A program made the translations under genes and the position numbers. From Escherichia coli (GTDB lineage: Bacteria > Pseudomonadota > Gammaproteobacteria > Enterobacterales > Enterobacteriaceae), in assembly GCF_003991155.1 (NCBI RefSeq), contig NZ_CP031293.1: a DNA stretch of 64,000 nucleotides; one strand, written 5' to 3'. This document shows, piece after piece, positions 3,778 through 50,239 of the stretch. Positions within the stretch are counted from its first letter, which is position 1. Every line of letters starts with the position of its first letter. Under the pieces are notes generated by a model. It did not search any database. It was not told where the DNA came from and saw only the letters and a list, made by a program, of their open reading frames with translations.

Positions 3778-4272
3778 TTATGAACAACTGTCCATGATTT
3801 CGTTTAAGAATGAAGAGAAATCACTAAACGAACTGAATATATTTTCTGTGCCAATATTATCTCTAATTTCAAAAAAGTTATTTTTAATGTCATAAGTAAA
3901 TATTGAAATGCTATCATCCCCGATCACTAACCGTTCTTGTAGATCAGGGTTTATGAAATCATCATTATTTCTATAAAATTCATTTACGGCAAAAAGGTTT
4001 TTAACTGAAGGTTCTGGAATCGAGAGGCTGAATAATCGTAATCCATTAACTTCGAATCCATCCATTGCTCTTAAAAAAGTAAGATAATCAGGTTGATTAT
4101 TAAAGAGAATACTAACTTCATTACATAACTTCTCCAGGCAATTAGTTGGATTAGAATTAAATTTTATTTGGATTATACTTTCAATAAATGATTCCTTGAG
4201 CGGTGCTTCAAATGGATAGTCTAAATCATTCATCATTTTTTTTAATTTATTTATTTGGGTTTTAGTCATCAT
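3778..4272 (-). CDS. hypothetical 164-aa protein; candidate cognate immunity protein for the YhhZ HNH toxin (occupies the yrhA position)
   Basis: ORF immediately downstream of yhhZ on the same strand with a 4-nt ATGA start/stop overlap (4269-4272); AT-rich, acidic, no signal peptide. The immunity role is inferred from synteny and coupling only. Confidence 0.6.
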   Translation of the reverse strand: MMTKTQINKLKKMMNDLDYPFEAPLKESFIESIIQIKFNSNPTNCLEKLCNEVSILFNNQPDYLTFLRAMDGFEVNGLRLFSLSIPEPSVKNLFAVNEFYRNNDDFINPDLQERLVIGDDSISIFTYDIKNNFFEIRDNIGTENIFSSFSDFSSFLNEIMDSCS

Positions 4273-5447
4273 TTTGTGGGTTCCATAATATTTTTCATGG
4301 GAGGATAAATTGAGCCAGATGGAATGGCCCAGGGAGTGATTTTGCTTTCACCTACTAATATTCCCTTAGCTATTCGTGATTGCATGTTAGTAAAAACTTT
4401 ATGATATGGTTCGTTTTCGATTAATACTAAATTTTCGAAATCATTAGTACCACCATCATCTAGAGATAGTTTATGGTGAACATTATAATTTAGAGGAACA
4501 TTGCCCTTTCTCATTCTTAAAAGGTCTTCGGCGTTGAATCTTCCAGATGCTTCGGAGGTTTTTGCAAGTTTGATAAGAAAATTTTTTCTTACAGTTTTAT
4601 TAAACTCCTTTCGTAAGTTAGCTAAGTCTTTTGAAGGTCTCTTAATGTATATTATTTCTATTATGTCTATACCATCAAGAAGTTTTTGTTGACCTCTAAG
4701 TTTGCCTAAGTAACTATTTATTTCTGTATATGTATCAACATTAGAACGCTTTGTTAAAAGAATAGATGCTGTTGCTATCGCTATGCCCGCTGTTTTTTCA
4801 TTTAGTATTTGATCATAGCCTTTTATTGCATCTCCACCCAGTTTTTCCGCAGTATCTCTGAATCCTTCAATGTTCCCATTGTATACGCCACCAGCAGCAA
4901 GTAGCCTGCCAATAGCTTTGCTGTTTAACGTTTTGAAACGATTATTTGTTTGGTTTTTTGAATTTGGTAAAAACAAACAGTTATAATTTTCAGGGAGTGC
5001 CAAATAGCTGAACTCGGTATTTGCGATAATCTGTTGACAGAGGATAAATTCATAACTAACAGTTATTGTTTCTGTATCCAGTTGATTTTCAATGATCTGA
5101 TGATGAATAGCCGATAAAAAAGCGCCTCTTAGTTGTATATAATAATACTTTTCCCATCTACCAAATCTATTTATTCGATAGAAGTCAAATCCCATAAATA
5201 ATTGTTCATTATTGTTAATGGAATTAATAAATAATGGAGTGCTTTTATCAATTAATTTACAAAATGTTATACCATGGAACTGTGAACCAAGCCCCGTATT
5301 AGTAATACTATTTAAGAGTGAGAATGTAAATATTTCATCCTCATGCCCGCTCTGCCAGCGATTACCTGTAGACTCAGAAGTCCCACAACCTGCGGAGATG
5401 CTTCCTTGTTGTTCTCCCGTTACTGTCAGGTAAACAATATTACTCAT
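4269..5447 (-). CDS. yhhZ: Hcp-family protein with a C-terminal HNH nuclease domain (Hcp extended-toxin type, YhhZ)
   Basis: 392 aa; the N-terminal ~160 aa look Hcp1-like (MSNIVYLTVTGEQQGSISAG...), and the C-terminus carries an HNH-like motif (NYNVHHKLSLDDGGTNDFENLVLIENEPYHKVF); markedly AT-rich compared with its neighbours. Confidence 0.8.
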   Translation of the reverse strand: MSNIVYLTVTGEQQGSISAGCGTSESTGNRWQSGHEDEIFTFSLLNSITNTGLGSQFHGITFCKLIDKSTPLFINSINNNEQLFMGFDFYRINRFGRWEKYYYIQLRGAFLSAIHHQIIENQLDTETITVSYEFILCQQIIANTEFSYLALPENYNCLFLPNSKNQTNNRFKTLNSKAIGRLLAAGGVYNGNIEGFRDTAEKLGGDAIKGYDQILNEKTAGIAIATASILLTKRSNVDTYTEINSYLGKLRGQQKLLDGIDIIEIIYIKRPSKDLANLRKEFNKTVRKNFLIKLAKTSEASGRFNAEDLLRMRKGNVPLNYNVHHKLSLDDGGTNDFENLVLIENEPYHKVFTNMQSRIAKGILVGESKITPWAIPSGSIYPPMKNIMEPTK

Positions 5448-11590: not shown

Positions 11591-11602
11591 TTACTGCGAC
11601 AA

Positions 11603-11628
11603 ATTACTGCGAGCTTGCTCGCAGTAAT
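11603..11628 (+). terminator. gntU terminator hairpin
   Basis: Perfect inverted repeat attactgcgagc / gctcgcagtaat followed by a T-rich tract. Confidence 0.7.
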
Positions 11629-11729
11629 TCATTTCTCTTATCTCCTCTCTTCATCTTTTTGATCTCTCTCGCAAATTTACCTGCTAATAATCCGTTCTAA
11701 TCACTGCCTAAAGATCGCAGGAGATAAAG

Positions 11730-13826
11730 ATGGAAAAGCACGGAGCTGAATTGCTTTTACAGCGGATGTTAGGAAATACCACCGCTACTTTCAGGGAAGG
11801 GCAATGGGAAGCCATAGATGCAGTGGTTAATCAGCGGCGAAAACTGCTGGTTGTACAGCGCACCGGCTGGGGGAAAAGTGCCGTGTACTTCATCGCCAGT
11901 AAAATCTTCCGCGATCGCGGCGCTGGCCCGACAATTATCATCTCTCCTTTGCTTGCCCTGATGCGTAACCAGGTTGCCGCCGCTGAACGGTTAGGTATTA
12001 CGGCTGAAACGTTGAATTCTACAAACAGGGAAGAATGGCAGCGCATTAGCGATAAGTTGCTGCAAGGTGAGGTCGATTGCTTGCTGGTTTCCCCGGAACG
12101 TTTGGCAAACCAGGACTTTATCGAAACGGTTTTATATCCTATAGCCGATCGTATTGGCTTGCTTGTGGTCGACGAGGCGCACTGCATCTCTGATTGGGGC
12201 CACGATTTTCGCCCGGATTACCGACGTATATTAGATATTTTGCGCCAACTGCCTGCGAATACCCCTGTTCTGGGTACAACCGCGACAGCGAATAACCGTG
12301 TTGTTGAGGATATCCGTCAGCAATTGGGTGACATTGTGATTCAGCGTGGAACGCTGGCTCGCGAAAGTTTGGCGCTTGATGCCTTAGTCTTAGGAGAACA
12401 GTCATCCCGTCTGGCATGGTTAGCAACGGTTATCCCTCAGTTTTCCAAATCGGGAATTGTTTATACCCTGACGACTCGCGATGCTGAACTTGTCGCCGAG
12501 TGGTTAAGGAAAAATGGTATCAGTGCATTTGCTTACTACAGCGGCGTGACTTGTGAAGGCGCGGAAGATTCTAATACTGCCAGGGAATATCTGGAGCAGG
12601 CACTGCTGGCAAATAAAATCAAAGTGCTGGTCGCGACGACGGCATTAGGTATGGGGTTTGATAAACCTGATTTAGGTTTCGTCATTCATTATCAGATGCC
12701 GGGGTCTATTGTCGGTTACTACCAACAGGTGGGGCGTGCCGGGCGTGCTATAGATTCCGCAGTTGGCATATTGCTTTGTGGTGGTGAAGACCGCGCTATT
12801 CATCAATTCTTCCGTGAAAGCGCCTTTCCTGCGGAGGCGCAAATTCATGAAATACTCAACGTACTTAGCGAGAATGACGGTCTTACCCTACGAGGCATTG
12901 AACAACGGACGAATCTTCGTTATGGGCAAATAGAAAAAGCACTGAAATTATTGGTAGCGGAAAATCCATCGCCTGTGGTGTATACCGAGAAATTATGGCG
13001 CAGAACTATCGTCAGTTTTTCTCCTGATCATGAACGAATTAACCATTTGATGAATCAGAGAAAAAGTGAGCTGGCAGACGTTGAAAGCTATATCACGACC
13101 AAGGAGTGCAAAATGCAATTTCTGCGCCGTGCACTCGATGAGCCAAGTGCCGAACGTTGTGGTAAATGTAGCAGTTGTCTTCAACATCCGTTATTGTCGC
13201 CCGACATTGATAGCGGCTTACTCCATGCGGCAAATTTATTTATTAAACACGCTGACCTGCCGTTAAATCTCAATAAACAGGTGGCAGCTGGGGCTTTTAC
13301 GCAATACGGATTTAAAGGGAACTTGCCTGCGGGTTTACAAGGATCTACGGGGCGAATCCTTTCTCGTTGGGGAGATTCCGGGTGGGGAAAGCAGGTAGCA
13401 CAGGAGAAAAAAACGGGGCGCTTAAGTGATGAGCTGGTAGAAGCATGTGCGGAAATGGTTTGCCAACGCTGGAATCCGCATCCTGAACCAACCTGGGTAT
13501 GCTGCGTTCCTTCATTAAGGCACCTCGACCTGGTTCCTGATTTTGCCCGGCGACTGGCGGCGAAACTTGGCTTACCTTTTATTGATGCCATTGAAAAAGT
13601 CGTGGACAATCCACCGCAGAAAATGCAGCAAAACCGTTTTCACCAGTGTCAAAATCTCGACGGGGCGTTTGTGATTACCCCTCCTTTGATGCCAGGTCCG
13701 GCGTTGCTGGTTGACGATATCGTGGATTCTGCATGGACGCTGACAGTTCTGACAGCACTGTTACGCAAGGCAGGTTGCCCGACGGTTTATCCTCTTGCCC
13801 TTGCTTCTACCTCGGTAAAAAATTGA
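11730..13826 (+). CDS. RecQ-like superfamily-2 DNA helicase fused to a C-terminal ComF-type phosphoribosyltransferase-like domain (PsyrT/ShosT-like candidate toxin or defence effector)
   Basis: 698 aa; helicase motifs Walker A (RTGWGKSAVY), DEAH in the RecQ-style context VVDEAHCISDWGHDFRPDY, TATA and QQVGRAGR; a Zn-binding Cys cluster (ERCGKCSSC); the last ~150 aa carry a PRPP-binding-like motif ALLVDDIVDSAWTLTVL resembling gntX/ComF MVIVDDVVTTGST. AGGAGA ribosome-binding site before the ATG. Not part of the K-12 gntU-yhgN junction as I recall it. Confidence 0.8.
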   Translation: MEKHGAELLLQRMLGNTTATFREGQWEAIDAVVNQRRKLLVVQRTGWGKSAVYFIASKIFRDRGAGPTIIISPLLALMRNQVAAAERLGITAETLNSTNREEWQRISDKLLQGEVDCLLVSPERLANQDFIETVLYPIADRIGLLVVDEAHCISDWGHDFRPDYRRILDILRQLPANTPVLGTTATANNRVVEDIRQQLGDIVIQRGTLARESLALDALVLGEQSSRLAWLATVIPQFSKSGIVYTLTTRDAELVAEWLRKNGISAFAYYSGVTCEGAEDSNTAREYLEQALLANKIKVLVATTALGMGFDKPDLGFVIHYQMPGSIVGYYQQVGRAGRAIDSAVGILLCGGEDRAIHQFFRESAFPAEAQIHEILNVLSENDGLTLRGIEQRTNLRYGQIEKALKLLVAENPSPVVYTEKLWRRTIVSFSPDHERINHLMNQRKSELADVESYITTKECKMQFLRRALDEPSAERCGKCSSCLQHPLLSPDIDSGLLHAANLFIKHADLPLNLNKQVAAGAFTQYGFKGNLPAGLQGSTGRILSRWGDSGWGKQVAQEKKTGRLSDELVEACAEMVCQRWNPHPEPTWVCCVPSLRHLDLVPDFARRLAAKLGLPFIDAIEKVVDNPPQKMQQNRFHQCQNLDGAFVITPPLMPGPALLVDDIVDSAWTLTVLTALLRKAGCPTVYPLALASTSVKN

Positions 13827-15028
13827 TGAATCTTTCAGCCAATGCACAAGCGACCCTCCTGCTAACCAGCGATTTTTCTCGCGCGGCGGCGAGTGAGTAT
13901 AAACCTCTTAGTAATAGTGAATGGGGGAAGTTTGCATTATGGCTGAAGCACCAACGTATCAGTCCCGCCGATCTTCTGGTGCCGCAACCGCAAGAGAAAC
14001 TTACAGGCTGGAGCGATCCGCGTATTTCTCAGGAGCGTATTCTTGGCTTGCTGGCGCGTGGCCATAGTCTGGCGTTGGCGGTAGATAAGTGGCAACGCGC
14101 CGGTTTATGGATCTTAACCCGCGGAGATGCCGATTATCCCGTTCGCTTGAAAAACCGATTGCGAACGGATGCACCTCCCGTTTTATTTGGCTGCGGGAAT
14201 AAAGCATTACTGCAAGCGGAAGGTATGGCGATTGTTGGCTCGCGAGATGCTCCGACTGCCGATTTGCGCTATACCCAACAACTGGCAGCGAAACTGGCCC
14301 AACAGGGGATTTGCGTTATCTCTGGTGGTGCGCGAGGTATTGATGAATGTGCAATGGCGTCGGCACTGGAGGCCGGGGGAACTGCCGTTGGCGTATTAGC
14401 TGATAGCTTGTTAAAAACGAGTACGTTAGTGAAATGGCGTGAAGGGCTTATAGCAGGCAACCTGGTGTTGATTTCGCCGTTTTACCCAGAGGTACGTTTC
14501 ACCGTCGGCAATGCGATGGCGCGAAATAAATATATTTATTGCCTTGCTGAAAGCGCAATGGTTGTACGTGCGGGAATGACCGGTGGAACGATAACCGGAG
14601 CGATGGAGGCGTTAAAACATCAGTGGCTGCCTGTGCAGGTTAAACCAAATCAGGATGTGCAATCAGCCAATTCACGATTAGTAGAAAATGGGGCGTCATG
14701 GAGTGCTGAACAGGCTGAGAATGTGACGATCAGACTGCCAGACGTTCCTGGGCTGATGTATGACAGAGCACTCCGTAACGCTCAACCAGAATTGTTTTCG
14801 CTGCACGAAGATGACGCAAATTACGCAGTGATGCCCTCGCATACCCCTGTCGATTTTTATCAACTTTTTGTGGCGGAACTGGCGATCCTTGCAAAGGAAT
14901 CGATAAGTATTGAAAGGCTGGCGTCTTGTACTGGTTTAACCATCGAACAAATTAGTGTGTGGCTGAACCGCGCAGAAGAAGAGGGAAGGGTTATCCGATT
15001 GGGCGAAGGTCATTATCAGTTCAGGTAA
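13826..15028 (+). CDS. DprA/Smf-like Rossmann-fold DNA-processing protein (PsyrA/ShosA-like candidate antitoxin or partner)
   Basis: 400 aa from the ATG at 13826, which overlaps the upstream TGA (TGATG, translational coupling); DprA signature (MAIVGSRDAPTADLRY ... VISGGARGIDECAMASALEAGG) and a C-terminal winged-helix-like tail; the track's longer ORF from 13733 is an in-frame extension into the upstream gene. Confidence 0.8.
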   Translation: MNLSANAQATLLLTSDFSRAAASEYKPLSNSEWGKFALWLKHQRISPADLLVPQPQEKLTGWSDPRISQERILGLLARGHSLALAVDKWQRAGLWILTRGDADYPVRLKNRLRTDAPPVLFGCGNKALLQAEGMAIVGSRDAPTADLRYTQQLAAKLAQQGICVISGGARGIDECAMASALEAGGTAVGVLADSLLKTSTLVKWREGLIAGNLVLISPFYPEVRFTVGNAMARNKYIYCLAESAMVVRAGMTGGTITGAMEALKHQWLPVQVKPNQDVQSANSRLVENGASWSAEQAENVTIRLPDVPGLMYDRALRNAQPELFSLHEDDANYAVMPSHTPVDFYQLFVAELAILAKESISIERLASCTGLTIEQISVWLNRAEEEGRVIRLGEGHYQFR

Positions 15029-15030
15029 TA

Positions 15031-15068
15031 AAACAGGTGCCGCCTCTGGTTGTGTGCAGCACCTGTTT
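15031..15068. terminator. hairpin between the island and the yhgN 3' end
   Basis: Inverted repeat aaacaggtgc ... gcacctgttt with an 18-nt loop, between the DprA-like stop and the yhgN stop. Confidence 0.45.
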
Positions 15069-26648: not shown

Positions 26649-26731
26649 GCCTTTATTTAGGAAAAGTGTCCAGAGGGGGCGAGGGTTATCGGGGAGTATA
26701 ATTTCGCCATTCAGCAAGAATGGAAAGAATA

Positions 26732-28237
26732 ATGCAAAACGGAAAATGGATTTTGACCTCGCTGGTAATGACTTTTTTTGGCATCCCCATACTGGCGCAA
26801 TTTTTGGCAGCGGTTGTTGCCATGCTGGGGGCCGGGCTTGCCGCTATTCTTGAGGTTTGCAATTTACTCTTTACGCCAACAATTTATCTTCTACTCAACG
26901 TCTTTATGCTGACGCTGGGGGCGATAATCATATTTTTCTCTGGTCGCGTGTGGACTGGTGATAGCGCACCAGAAAAAAGAGAAATAGCCGCCTGGCGACA
27001 ATGCTTTTTTCTCTTACCCGCGCTATTAACCCTGATTGGCTGGATAATCGCGCTACATCTGGCAGATTATCAACTTCGCCAGATGGGAGCCGGTTGGTTG
27101 GCAAACCTTATGCTTCCCTGGTTGGGCGTTTTTACAGTCTCATTCGTCGGTGGTGAGTACTGGTGGATAGTCATTATTCCCGTTGGCGCGCATATCAGTT
27201 TTTCACTGGGATACGGCTGGCCGACCAGACACCCTTTAACCGGCACCTCCGGTCTACGTTGCCGTAATTTACTTCTGTTCATTCTTCTCTTACTGGGTAT
27301 TGTCGCTGGTTATCAGGCTTATTTATATAAACAGCTTAATCCCGGCGTCGGTGTGCGTGAAAATATTGATACCTGGGCCTGGCGACCCGATAAACTTAAT
27401 AATCAACTGACGCCACTGCGTGGTAAACCACAAATTCAATTTACGCAAAACTGGCCGCGACTCGATGGCGCTACGGCGGCGTACCCCATTTATGCCTCTG
27501 CATTTTATGCATTAAGTGTAATACCAGAGGATTTTCACGTTTGGGATTATCTGGATAACTCTCGTACGCCAGAAGCATATAACAAAATCGTTAACGGTGA
27601 TGCCGATATTATTTTCGTGGCGCAACCTTCCGATGGGCAAAAAAAACGCGCTGAGAAATCGGGCGTCACTTTGCTGTACACGCCATTTGCCCGTGAAGCG
27701 TTTGTTTTCATCGTCAATGCGGATAATCCGGTTAATTCCCTGACTGAACAACAAGTGCGTGACATTTTTAGTGGCGAAATTACCAACTGGCGCACGGTTG
27801 GCGGTAAGGATCAGGAGATCCAGACCTGGCAACGCCCGGAAGACTCTGGCAGCCAGACAGTGATGCAATCACAGGTCATGAAAAATGTCCGCATGATCTC
27901 GCCGCAGGAAACCGAAGTGGCAAGCATGATGGAGGGAATGATTAAAGTCGTTGCCGAATACCGTAATACAAACAACGCAATAGGCTACACCTTCCGCTAT
28001 TACGCAACACAAATGAATGCCGATAAAAATATAAAACTGCTAGCGATTAACGGTATTGCACCGACTGCGGAAAATATTCGTAACGGCAAATATCCGTATA
28101 TCATCGATGCCTTTATGGTAACGCGGGAAAATACTACGTCAGAAACACAAAAACTGGTCGAATGGTTTTTAACGCCGCAGGGACAGAGTCTGGTGGAAGA
28201 TGTGGGCTATGTGCCGCTGTATCCAACAATGAAATAA
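26732..28237 (+). CDS. membrane-anchored PstS-like substrate-binding protein (N-terminal polytopic membrane domain fused to a C-terminal phosphate/oxyanion-binding-protein-like domain)
   Basis: About 200 aa of hydrophobic helices, then a binding-protein-like domain with an R-x-x-D-S-G-S-Q-T motif (QRPEDSGSQTVM) reminiscent of the PstS phosphate-binding loop; start taken at the ATG at 26732 (MQNGKW, GGAAAG upstream), though 26720 is also possible. K-12 has only a pseudogene remnant (yzgL) at this position, from memory. Confidence 0.65.
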   Translation: MQNGKWILTSLVMTFFGIPILAQFLAAVVAMLGAGLAAILEVCNLLFTPTIYLLLNVFMLTLGAIIIFFSGRVWTGDSAPEKREIAAWRQCFFLLPALLTLIGWIIALHLADYQLRQMGAGWLANLMLPWLGVFTVSFVGGEYWWIVIIPVGAHISFSLGYGWPTRHPLTGTSGLRCRNLLLFILLLLGIVAGYQAYLYKQLNPGVGVRENIDTWAWRPDKLNNQLTPLRGKPQIQFTQNWPRLDGATAAYPIYASAFYALSVIPEDFHVWDYLDNSRTPEAYNKIVNGDADIIFVAQPSDGQKKRAEKSGVTLLYTPFAREAFVFIVNADNPVNSLTEQQVRDIFSGEITNWRTVGGKDQEIQTWQRPEDSGSQTVMQSQVMKNVRMISPQETEVASMMEGMIKVVAEYRNTNNAIGYTFRYYATQMNADKNIKLLAINGIAPTAENIRNGKYPYIIDAFMVTRENTTSETQKLVEWFLTPQGQSLVEDVGYVPLYPTMK

Positions 28238-28262
28238 CGCTCGAGAGAAAGGAATCAGCGCA

Positions 28263-29255
28263 ATGAATAAATTCACCGGTGTTTTACTATTAGGTACGGC
28301 GCTACTGGCGGGATGTGTCGACCGGGAAGGGTACTATAACAGCGTCAGGGAAGAAGACAGCCATGGACTGACGTCTCTGCGGGGGCAACCTGAATTACGT
28401 TACAACGATGATTGGTCAAGATGGCCGAGAGTGTACGGCGCTACAGCCTTATACCCGCTGTATGCCTCCGCGTATTATGAATTAGTACCCGAGCCAAAAG
28501 ATAAGGATCGAACCTCGCTGGCCTGGCAGGCGTATGGTTTGCAACAAACCCGAACAGCTGAAGCCTACGATAGTCTGATTAAGGGTACCGCGACGGTTAT
28601 TTTTGTTGCACAACCGTCGGAAGGACAGAAAAAACGTGCAGAAGAAGCAGGTGTTAAACTCAAATATACCGCTTTCGCCCGCGAAGCCTTTGTCTTTATC
28701 GTTGATATCAAAAACCCGGTTAATTCACTTAGCGAACAGCAGGTCAAAGACATTTTTAGCGGTAAAGTGAGTCGCTGGAATAAAGTGGGCGGCGGTGACG
28801 AAAGTATAAAAGTCTGGCAGCGGCCAGAAGATTCTGGAAGCCAAACGGTTATGAAGGGACTGGTTATGCAAGATACTCCAATGCTGCCAGCCAAAAAATC
28901 CACTGTTATCGATCTTATGGGCGGTTTAATTACCGAAGTCGCCGACTACCAAAATACACCATCTTCTATTGGATACACCTTCTACTATTACGTCACACGT
29001 ATGAATGACAATATGCTCAAAATGCGCAAACAGATCAAACTGCTGGCTATAAATGGCGTTGCACCTACAGAGGAAAATATCCGTAACGGCACTTATCCGT
29101 ACATAATTCATGCTTATATGGTGACGCACGAAAACCCTACGCTGGAAACACAGAAATTCGTCGACTGGTTTTTAAGCCCGCAGGGACAGCAATTGGTAGA
29201 GGATGTGGGCTATGTGCCGATTTATGACGCATCATCCGAATCATCAGGACAATAA
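28263..29255 (+). CDS. PstS-like substrate-binding lipoprotein, paralog of the C-terminal domain of the upstream gene
   Basis: 330 aa; lipoprotein signal with lipobox (MNKFTGVLLLGTALLAGC); shares long near-identical blocks with the upstream protein (VIFVAQPSEGQKKRAEEAGV, QRPEDSGSQTVM, KLLAINGVAPTEENIRNGTYPYII, VEDVGYVPIY); AAGGAA ribosome-binding site. Confidence 0.7.
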   Translation: MNKFTGVLLLGTALLAGCVDREGYYNSVREEDSHGLTSLRGQPELRYNDDWSRWPRVYGATALYPLYASAYYELVPEPKDKDRTSLAWQAYGLQQTRTAEAYDSLIKGTATVIFVAQPSEGQKKRAEEAGVKLKYTAFAREAFVFIVDIKNPVNSLSEQQVKDIFSGKVSRWNKVGGGDESIKVWQRPEDSGSQTVMKGLVMQDTPMLPAKKSTVIDLMGGLITEVADYQNTPSSIGYTFYYYVTRMNDNMLKMRKQIKLLAINGVAPTEENIRNGTYPYIIHAYMVTHENPTLETQKFVDWFLSPQGQQLVEDVGYVPIYDASSESSGQ

Positions 29256-29257
29256 AG

Positions 29258-29863
29258 ATGAATAAAATCAGACTTTATATTCCTCCGTTAATTCTTGGTT
29301 TTGTTATTGTGCCGTTGTTGGTGTGGCCGACGGTGGTTGCGCTGGCTGCTTGTGTTATCACGCTGAGTTTTATGGGAGAAATACTGTTCTCTATCCCGCT
29401 CATGTTCAGGAGTATTTCACTTCTGGAATTCCAACTTGGGTTATTGGCTGAATATGCACTTTTTTTCTGTGCCATGTGTTGCGTTGGTTGGCAATTTTCT
29501 TGCAGAACTCAATCTGAACTGAAAAGCAGACTCCATTGTTGGTTGGTATTTGCACCAGTTTATTTCTGGTTGCTCCTGTGGAATATCATTTTCTATGTCG
29601 CGCCAGCGCAAATTGCTTTGCTGGAAAATATGCGCAATTTCTTTCTGACCATTGTCTGGTTACCCCTGAATTTTTTTCAATTTGGGTCTCAGCCGTGGAC
29701 TGACTTTATCGGTCCGATAAGCGCCCAGCTTGGTTTTGCATTGGGATATTATTGCCAGTGGCGTAGCAAAAATAGAAGTCAGAGGAAGAAGTGGGGCGAG
29801 TGGGTAACGTGCTTAAGTTTGGCGATTTTAGCTCAGGGGCCGTTATTCAATTATTTACAATGA
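29258..29863 (+). CDS. hypothetical polytopic membrane protein
   Basis: 201-aa ORF with about five hydrophobic segments, 2 bp after the lipoprotein gene (probable operon); no recognisable family from sequence alone. Confidence 0.5.
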   Translation: MNKIRLYIPPLILGFVIVPLLVWPTVVALAACVITLSFMGEILFSIPLMFRSISLLEFQLGLLAEYALFFCAMCCVGWQFSCRTQSELKSRLHCWLVFAPVYFWLLLWNIIFYVAPAQIALLENMRNFFLTIVWLPLNFFQFGSQPWTDFIGPISAQLGFALGYYCQWRSKNRSQRKKWGEWVTCLSLAILAQGPLFNYLQ

Positions 29864-47840: not shown

Positions 47841-49332
<1,492 letters not shown>

Positions 49333-49360: not shown

Positions 49361-50239
49361 TTACTGACTCGCCGCAGCCAACTCTTCTTCTGACACCCCG
49401 GTAAAACGCATGATGTCCGCAAGAGGGACTCCGGATTCAAGCATTATTTTTGCTATATGCAAGGCTTTGGATTGTTCCCCCTCTTGCCGCAATCTTTCCG
49501 CAATAGTCATTAAGCTCTCCTTGTGTTTCGGTGAATGTTCGGCAACGCCGTCGATAAAATCGTTAAAACGTACCGCATCGCCGGTTTGCAAGATGTAATT
49601 AAACAGCCCTTTGATTTGTCTGTCATTAGCGTATCCACTACTTAATAAGCAGGCCATTTGCTCTACCAGCCCCATCAGATCGCGTTGACGAATATGTTTT
49701 TGAATTAACTCCAGCAGCGCCATACGTCGGTGCTGCATGATTTCATCATCAGGCATGACGGTGACATCAATCAGCGGAAATGCGGAGGCATAAAGCTGCC
49801 TTGCCAGGTTGGGATCGGCGAAACAATCCAGCCAACACAGTGAATAGGGATAGGGGCTTTCAATGCCGTGGTAAAACAACAATGGCACCACCATCGGCAA
49901 CGTTTTGTATCCGGCATCCAGGTGATTTTGCATTGCGGCAATAGCGTAACGCATCATGCGAAATGCGATCAGTTTGTTTGAGGTGCTTTGATGTTCAATC
50001 AGACAATAGATGTATCCTGGTCCTTGTTCCGTTTTCACCGACCACAGCACGTCGGAATAGCTTTCACGCAGATCGTCATCAATAAAGCTGCTCGACTCCA
50101 GCTTGAGGGTTTTCATATCACAGAGCGCGTGAATAGGTGCCGGTAAATGGAACGCAAGAAAATCGCGCGCCGTCTCCGGTTGGCGTAAAAAGAGTTTGAA
50201 CAGCGCATCGTGTGGGGTGGAACTCTGCTTTTTGCTCAT
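49361..50239 (-). CDS. rpnA: recombination-promoting nuclease RpnA (YhgA; transposase_31 / PD-(D/E)xK family)
   Basis: 292-aa ORF matching my recollection of YhgA; a core Rpn-family gene, not an IS element (no inverted repeats). Confidence 0.85.

Follow-up and report, generated by a model that had tools for sequence, protein, structure and literature searches.

The helicase and DprA-like genes inserted between gntU and yhgN of Escherichia coli belong to the known RqlHI (PsyrTA) system, whose toxin ends in a ComF-like phosphoribosyltransferase domain

The fusion of a RecQ-like helicase to a ComF-like phosphoribosyltransferase (PRTase) domain was described in 2012 by Ordonez, Unciuleac and Shuman, who reported a "C-terminal ComF domain" with PRTase motifs in the founding member, RqlH of Mycobacterium smegmatis (PMC3378886). 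In 2015 Russell and Mulvey studied RqlH and RqlI of the extraintestinal pathogenic E. coli (ExPEC) strain F11 and drew a parallel with ComFA/ComFC of B. subtilis, ComF of H. influenzae and DprA (PMC4670107), and in 2017 Iyer et al. likewise placed the system beside ComFA/ComFC (PMC5512222). Millman et al. listed it in 2022 as PsyrTA among phage-resistance systems and noted a DprA-like antitoxin and a PRTase toxin (bioRxiv 10.1101/2022.05.11.491447); RqlHI and PsyrTA are two names for one system. Here we analyzed a two-gene insert, consisting of a helicase gene and a DprA-like gene, within a stretch of 64,000 nucleotides of an E. coli chromosome (contig NZ_CP031293.1), which is referred to as the window. 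The locus represents this already known system and should be labeled rqlHI/PsyrTA. The novelty implied by an original prediction, which had read the helicase tail and its partner as look-alikes of DNA-uptake proteins, is consequently not borne out, as the ComF-like domain, the ComFA/ComFC/DprA parallel and the anti-phage role are all contained in the reports above. Since the publications of 2012 to 2022 also cover the checks of fold, conservation and pull-down that had been proposed, these are largely done.

For the F11 proteins it has been reported that SOS induction, filamentation and the inhibition of growth all depend on the PRTase domain and its pocket for phosphoribosyl pyrophosphate (PRPP), and that SOS induction and toxicity are abolished by D663A, by DIVD663EVME or by deletion of the PRTase domain (PMC4670107). 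The PRTase domain by itself was non-toxic, and the toxicity of the full-length protein was rescued by RqlI. The pull-down of RqlI suggested in the original prediction is already available in the form of a co-immunoprecipitation, in which RqlI was recovered with full-length RqlH and the interaction was lost with RqlH 1-509, hence depending on the PRTase domain (PMC4670107). A PsyrTA system was reported to provide phage resistance, and transformation with the version deleted for psyrA failed (bioRxiv 10.1101/2022.05.11.491447). M. smegmatis RqlH exhibits the same architecture and 41.2% identity to F11 RqlH (PMC4670107); its helicase is biochemically defined, residues 1-505 holding the DNA-dependent ATPase and 3'-5' helicase, and a tetracysteine domain was described (PMC3378886), while no toxicity was reported for that protein. 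In Gram-positive organisms that have an RqlH homolog, an RqlI ortholog is almost always absent (PMC4670107). A further relative is ShosTA (PDB 8ZVB, 8ZVA), which resembles RqlHI in that a PRTase-domain toxin causes DNA damage and filamentation, a DprA-like protein neutralizes it and toxicity needs the PRPP pocket. The crystal structures of ShosT and ComFC bind PRPP, and mutants of the PRPP site lose function (PMC11961720, PMC12961424, PMC9005727).

The first gene of the insert, rqlH/psyrT (11730-13826, plus strand), encodes a toxin of 698 residues, in which a RecQ-like helicase is fused to a ComF-like PRTase domain. Its residues 3-697 matched positions 5-687 of the 689 positions of the PADLOC PsyrT model (E 0, 1061.7 bits). 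The DprA-family antitoxin gene rqlI/psyrA (13826-15028, plus strand) starts at 13826 and encodes 400 residues, all of which (1-400) matched positions 1-397 of the 398 positions of the PADLOC PsyrA model (E 4.2e-202). Both genes overlap by one nucleotide at a TGATG junction with the rqlH stop codon and are translationally coupled. The arrangement corresponds to that of PsyrTA, i.e. an N-terminal RecQ-like superfamily 2 (SF2) helicase followed by a C-terminal PRTase, with a DprA-like gene directly downstream in the same operon. It also corresponds to RqlH/RqlI of F11 (EcF11_3932/3933), which originate from the same species and form a two-gene operon with a DprA-like partner of 400 residues, RqlH of F11 showing the same domain order of RecQ-like helicase, zinc region and PRTase. 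Residues K49, D148 and D663 of the helicase carry numbers identical to those of the F11 RqlH residues mutated in PMC4670107, and the "Full-length RqlI 1-400" of that study matches the length of RqlI in the window. By numbering, locus and domain order no differences from F11 RqlH/RqlI were found. Taken as a whole, the explanation we favor, namely that the insert is the rqlH-rqlI (PsyrTA) operon, an acquired toxin-antitoxin and defence module, is given a probability of about 0.9.

RefSeq annotates the insert as a RecQ-family helicase and DprA. Its annotation pipeline (PGAP) starts the DprA-like gene at an upstream ATG at 13733, which yields 431 residues and lets the gene overlap that of the helicase by 94 nt. 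Because the PADLOC PsyrA match spans residues 1-400 and the published RqlI comprises 400 residues, the start at 13826 with its TGATG coupling is favored, and the gene model of the database probably begins 31 codons too early.

The motor of RqlH consists of an SF2 helicase core at 11796-12749 (plus strand), in which Pfam recognized DEAD at residues 23-194 (E 4.9e-25) and Helicase_C at residues 239-340 (E 4.2e-13). The Walker A motif TGWGKS is located at residues 45-50 (with K49) and the DEAH box at 148-151 (with D148). A RecQ-type zinc-binding region follows at 13056-13181 (plus strand, residues 443-484; Pfam RecQ_Zn_bind, weak, E 0.0014) and includes CGKCSSC at residues 477-483; no HRDC match was obtained in the Pfam scan of RqlH. 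As RqlH passes the RecQ-family model TIGR00614 (252.8 bits, cut-off 219.8) and stays below the RecQ equivalog TIGR01389 (296.3 bits, cut-off 640.2), it is a member of the RecQ family, not RecQ itself. The designation as a ComFA-type helicase in the original prediction is therefore not supported.

The tail of the helicase reads ...ALLVDDIVDSAWTL... and belongs to a C-terminal domain (C-domain) of residues 500-698 (13227-13823, plus strand), in which a small beta-rich subdomain with SRWGDxGWG is followed by a ComF-like type I PRTase fold. An AlphaFold2 model of these residues reached a mean predicted local distance difference test score (pLDDT) of 84.7 and a predicted template modeling score (pTM) of 0.84, and the top 50 matches of a Foldseek search of the PDB with this model were all proteins of the type I PRTase fold, mostly PRTases and PRPP synthetases. 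The nearest structure was of the ComFC type, i.e. a PRTase core extended by N-terminal strands. Furthermore, the domain displays the features of type I PRTases (PF00156), a Rossmann-like fold in which a phosphate-binding loop comes after an acidic pair. The PRTase-like fold, for which structure prediction had been proposed as a check, is hereby confirmed. Sequence searches were less conclusive: Pfam Pribosyltran matched full-length RqlH weakly (E 0.0039), which alone is insufficient to settle the fold, and a single-sequence phmmer search of the PDB with the C-domain gave marginal matches (APRT, adenine PRTase, E 0.14). The family profile aligned the loop to those of PRPP synthetase (LIDDIIDTAGT) and hypoxanthine PRTase (HPRT) in the PDB, and by sequence it reached neither ComFC nor ShosT there.

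For comparison, the housekeeping ComF-family protein of the window, GntX (gntX, 47841-48524, minus strand, outside the system; 227 residues), was considered. It carries MVIVDDVVTTGST at residues 190-202 and scores above the cut-offs of its own families (428.5 bits for the GntX model NF008616, cut-off 304; 269.9 bits for ComF TIGR00201, cut-off 233.55). BLASTP of the C-terminal 175 residues of RqlH against GntX gave 26% identity over 76 residues (E 4e-6), and hhalign of a profile of 36 family sequences against GntX gave a probability of 93% (E 2.8e-7) over 68 columns; these are the last 68 columns only, the N-terminal half of the domain being without detectable sequence similarity. GntX in turn matched positions 607-684 of the PADLOC PsyrT model (E 3.9e-9). 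When the family profile was compared with eight K-12 proteins of the PRTase fold, GntX was the best match with 27.2 bits over 70 columns, which reach into the flexible loop, followed by Prs (21.0 bits), Hpt (12.4 bits) and the others (at most 8 bits). The C-domain is thus a ComF-like PRTase fold and a distant true homolog of GntX. As judged by the curated models it is not a member of the ComF family itself, because it reaches 15.8 bits with the GntX model (cut-off 304), its best score among the curated metabolic PRTase models, and because TIGR00201 is not among the eight families listed for it at E values up to 1.

The original prediction had called the domain a paralog-like copy of ComF/GntX at 13400-13826. 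Its sequence facts were correct, as the loop in the helicase tail and the gntX motif were both located, and the homology proved to exceed chance. It is not the product of a gntX duplication, however: a recent paralog was rejected since 26% identity and the location on an accessory insert point to old divergence. The span given (residues 558-698) covers the PRTase core and misses the beginning of the conserved C-domain, which starts around residue 500-540 (nucleotides 13227-13350). Compared to ComFC/ComF/GntX (H. pylori ComFC, PDB 7P0H; TIGR00201), to which the identity amounts to about 26% over about 70 residues, the RqlH domain differs in being fused to a RecQ-like motor, in being toxic and in having no demonstrated role in DNA uptake. 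ComF/ComFC proteins are stand-alone proteins of about 200-250 residues with their own N-terminal four-cysteine zinc finger and are needed for DNA uptake, none of which applies to RqlH; the cysteines upstream of its PRTase domain match RecQ_Zn_bind.

The PRPP loop LLVDDIVDSAWTL comprises residues 659-671 (13704-13742, plus strand) including D663 and was assigned by its alignment with the loops of PRPP synthetase and HPRT and by the published mutagenesis. The flexible (hood) loop at residues 623-647 (13596-13670, plus strand) was assigned by conservation and the GntX alignment. Conservation was determined for 140 cluster representatives of 40-66% identity, selected out of 1636 whose E values were at most 1e-3. 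In the PRPP loop, D662 is invariant (100%), D663, S667 and W669 are each conserved in 99%, T670 in 96% and D666 in 83%, while position 668 is occupied by R (56%), G (34%) or A (4%). In the flexible loop Q630 (100%), N635 (97%) and N642 (99%) stand out, and a Q...N[LV]xxF pattern is common to RqlH and ComF/GntX ("...TQHF...RNLKNAF"), with Q630, N642 and F647 aligning to GntX. The low pLDDT of this loop in the model would fit a loop that is ordered by its ligand. Evidently, conservation of 96-100% extends to the acidic pair, S667 and T670, which answers the proposed check of the PRPP-binding residues. The loop differs from the TTG(S/T)T of ComF, as had been predicted: the ComF signature DD-x-x-T-T-G-x-T, present as DDIITTGTTL in ComFC and as DDVVTTGST in GntX, is replaced in the RqlH family by DD-x-V-D-S-[R/G/A]-W-T, and DS[R/G/A]WT with its almost invariant tryptophan is a hallmark of the family. 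In E. coli a D-[ST]-G-x-T loop is normal, as seen in Hpt (VEDIIDSGNTL), Gpt (IDDLVDTGGT) and Prs (VDDMIDTGGT); on this comparison, the idea of a degenerate loop was dismissed. Judging from these conservation patterns, the PRTase pocket, composed of the DD pair, the D-S-x-W-T loop and the flexible loop, is retained and under strong constraint.

Within the beta-rich subdomain ahead of the PRTase core, a family-specific motif G-R-x-L-S-R-W-G-D-x-G-W-G was observed at RqlH residues 541-553 (approximately 13350-13388). G541, L544, D549, G551, W552 and G553 are conserved in 83-96% of the representatives, and the motif could be a surface that binds RqlI or contacts DNA.

The partner RqlI contains a DprA/SLOG Rossmann domain at residues 89-292 (14090-14701, plus strand), for which Pfam reported DNA_processg_A (E 2.2e-50) and SLOG cluster4 (E 9.9e-11). 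Among solved structures it matched DprA (E 3e-12) and ShosA (8zva, E 1.2e-7), and it also matched the PADLOC ShosA model (E 7.1e-27). With 102.1 bits for TIGR00732 (cut-off 191.15) and 80.1 bits for NF008007 (cut-off 495) it stays below the DprA equivalogs and is therefore not the housekeeping DprA/Smf. The proposal that the partner mimics DprA was right as to the likeness, though RqlI is no mimic; it is a true homolog of the DprA family.

On this basis, a mechanism can be outlined in which RqlH would act as a RecQ-family 3'-5' helicase and its C-terminal ComF-like PRTase domain as a toxic effector with a presumably working PRPP/nucleotide pocket. When tethered to the helicase and unchecked, the PRTase domain would lead to DNA damage, SOS induction and filamentation, and binding of RqlI, a DprA-family protein of the type binding to single-stranded DNA (ssDNA), would keep it silent. 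During phage infection or replication stress, ssDNA or proteins might draw RqlI off or engage the helicase, and the PRTase activity set free in this way would then arrest growth. That ssDNA may be the cue is suggested by analogy with ShosA, which binds ssDNA and RecA. How a ComF-type PRTase uses PRPP, why this is genotoxic and how the domain is released from a DprA-like partner are questions for the field rather than for this window, and answers would also help to understand ShosTA and the part that ComFC plays in natural transformation. For such experiments, DD-x-V-D-S-[R/G]-W-T, Q630, N635 and N642 are the residues suggested by the conservation profile.

Several points weigh against the identification as a toxin-antitoxin and defence module with an active PRTase. 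The likeness to the F11 proteins is deduced from residue numbering and locus. Neither a product nor an acceptor of the PRTase has been reported for RqlH, ShosT or ComFC. When expressed in K-12, PsyrTA of E. coli strain NILS69 caused just a growth defect, and protection from the tested phages was not detected. Helicase-dead RqlH is toxic and was rescued by RqlI only partially (PMC4670107), which indicates a regulation that goes beyond sequestration. Among the strains with an RqlH ortholog, 55.3% are without an RqlI ortholog as counted by the authors (PMC4670107). Finally, loop position 668 is occupied by R, G or A where G is usual, and W669 is atypical, so that the chemistry may differ from that of classic PRTases.

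According to the explanation that survives best beside the favored one, the PRTase-like domain is a non-catalytic, repurposed sensor or decoy for ssDNA or phage replication intermediates, which possibly binds PRPP or a nucleotide as a signal. A non-catalytic or repurposed fold, possibly a sensor or decoy, is also what the original prediction had suggested from the altered loop. The idea gains from the fact that enzymatic turnover has not been reported for RqlH, ShosT or ComFC, that ShosT bound PRPP and none of the tested purines, and that ComFC binds ssDNA besides PRPP and nucleoside monophosphates. Moreover, a role as PRPP sensor was proposed for ShosT, nucleotide sensing or ssDNA binding was proposed for this class (PMC5512222), the loop has a W that is specific to the family and frequently an R where G would stand, and the PRTase domain alone is non-toxic. 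However, the ribose-binding DD pair, S667, T670 and several residues of the flexible loop show the 96-100% conservation typical of a working active site, and the loop has the form found in the active enzymes Hpt, Gpt and Prs. The loss of SOS induction and growth inhibition in D663A, and of toxicity in DIVD663EVME as well (PMC4670107), argues in the same direction, and a decoy would leave the genotoxicity unexplained. The step from an altered loop to a non-catalytic decoy is consequently not supported, and we regard a sensor or decoy function as unlikely.

Alternatively, RqlHI might mainly be a DNA-repair or DNA-uptake accessory, which acts in a ComFA/ComFC/DprA-like manner on chromosomal or incoming ssDNA and whose toxicity is a by-product of imbalance. 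Russell and Mulvey put forward a cooperative model, and their rqlI mutant was impaired in fitness and in growth at low oxygen in infection models (PMC4670107). ComFC and DprA interact in other species, many bacteria possess RqlH without RqlI, and the lack of phage protection by the NILS69 system would be expected under this explanation. Yet the same authors did not detect transformation in their ExPEC isolates, and deletion of rqlH rescued all rqlI phenotypes, so that no cost from losing the function of the pair was seen (PMC4670107). In addition, the pair is patchy (about 30% of E. coli), shows the behavior of a toxin-antitoxin pair and has been classed and tested as a defence system. A primary role in repair or uptake is hence rather improbable. 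An ordinary metabolic salvage PRTase fused by chance to a helicase is effectively refuted, as the loop does resemble those of Hpt and Prs, but the domain falls far below every curated metabolic model (at best the 15.8 bits for GntX), is structurally closest to ComFC, is genotoxic, is bound by a dedicated antitoxin and lies on an accessory insert.

Within the favored explanation of an RqlHI toxin-antitoxin module, the residues that set the pocket apart allow a more daring proposal. The invariant W669, the frequent arginine of the loop and the invariant Q/N-rich flexible loop might mark a PRTase whose target is nucleic acid instead of a free base, although we consider this a long shot. For example, as Russell and Mulvey speculated, a nucleobase or DNA end on ssDNA exposed by the helicase could be phosphoribosylated. 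If true, RqlH would be a toxin that modifies DNA by a hitherto undescribed chemistry.

Turning to the genomic context, the gene order in the window is gntR-gntK-gntU, the two-gene insert and yhgN-asd-glgB of the E. coli chromosome, the insert taking the place of the 56-bp gntU-yhgN spacer of K-12. The complete insert was found in 1641 of 5426 complete E. coli genomes (about 30%) and was always chromosomal. It is accessory and horizontally acquired. At its borders neither direct repeats nor mobility genes were seen, and its GC content of 47-53% is not distinct from that of the flanking DNA. A promoter scan upstream of rqlH revealed no sigma-70-like site. Directly behind gntU, a terminator scan identified a terminator-like hairpin at 11602-11629 (plus strand) with a 12-bp stem and a T-rich tail; the spacer that holds it is specific to the insert, precedes rqlH and is wholly unlike the K-12 spacer. 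Between the converging rqlI and yhgN genes a perfect inverted repeat of 10 bp, AAACAGGTGC...GCACCTGTTT, was found by eye at 15031-15068 (no strand assigned). It is missing from the K-12 spacer and was not called by a simple terminator scan, and it is probably a bidirectional terminator.

Three other loci of the window deserve mention. Between glgP and glpD, 26720-29863 (plus strand) holds two genes annotated as PstS-family phosphate-binding proteins (505 and 330 residues) and a hypothetical protein of 201 residues. PADLOC gave no matches in this block, K-12 presumably has no such genes between glgP and glpD, and the block may be another accessory insert. At 4269-5447 (minus strand), an open reading frame (ORF) of 392 residues, which RefSeq labels an Hcp1-family type VI secretion effector (tssD), adjoins yrhA in the variable yhhZ/yrhA region, and the neighboring yrhB and yrhD are pseudogenes. 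Just past bioH and two genes from gntX, an ORF of 292 residues at 49361-50239 (minus strand) was noted, which by sequence and position resembles YhgA/RpnA, an Rpn-family recombination-promoting nuclease, and may represent it.

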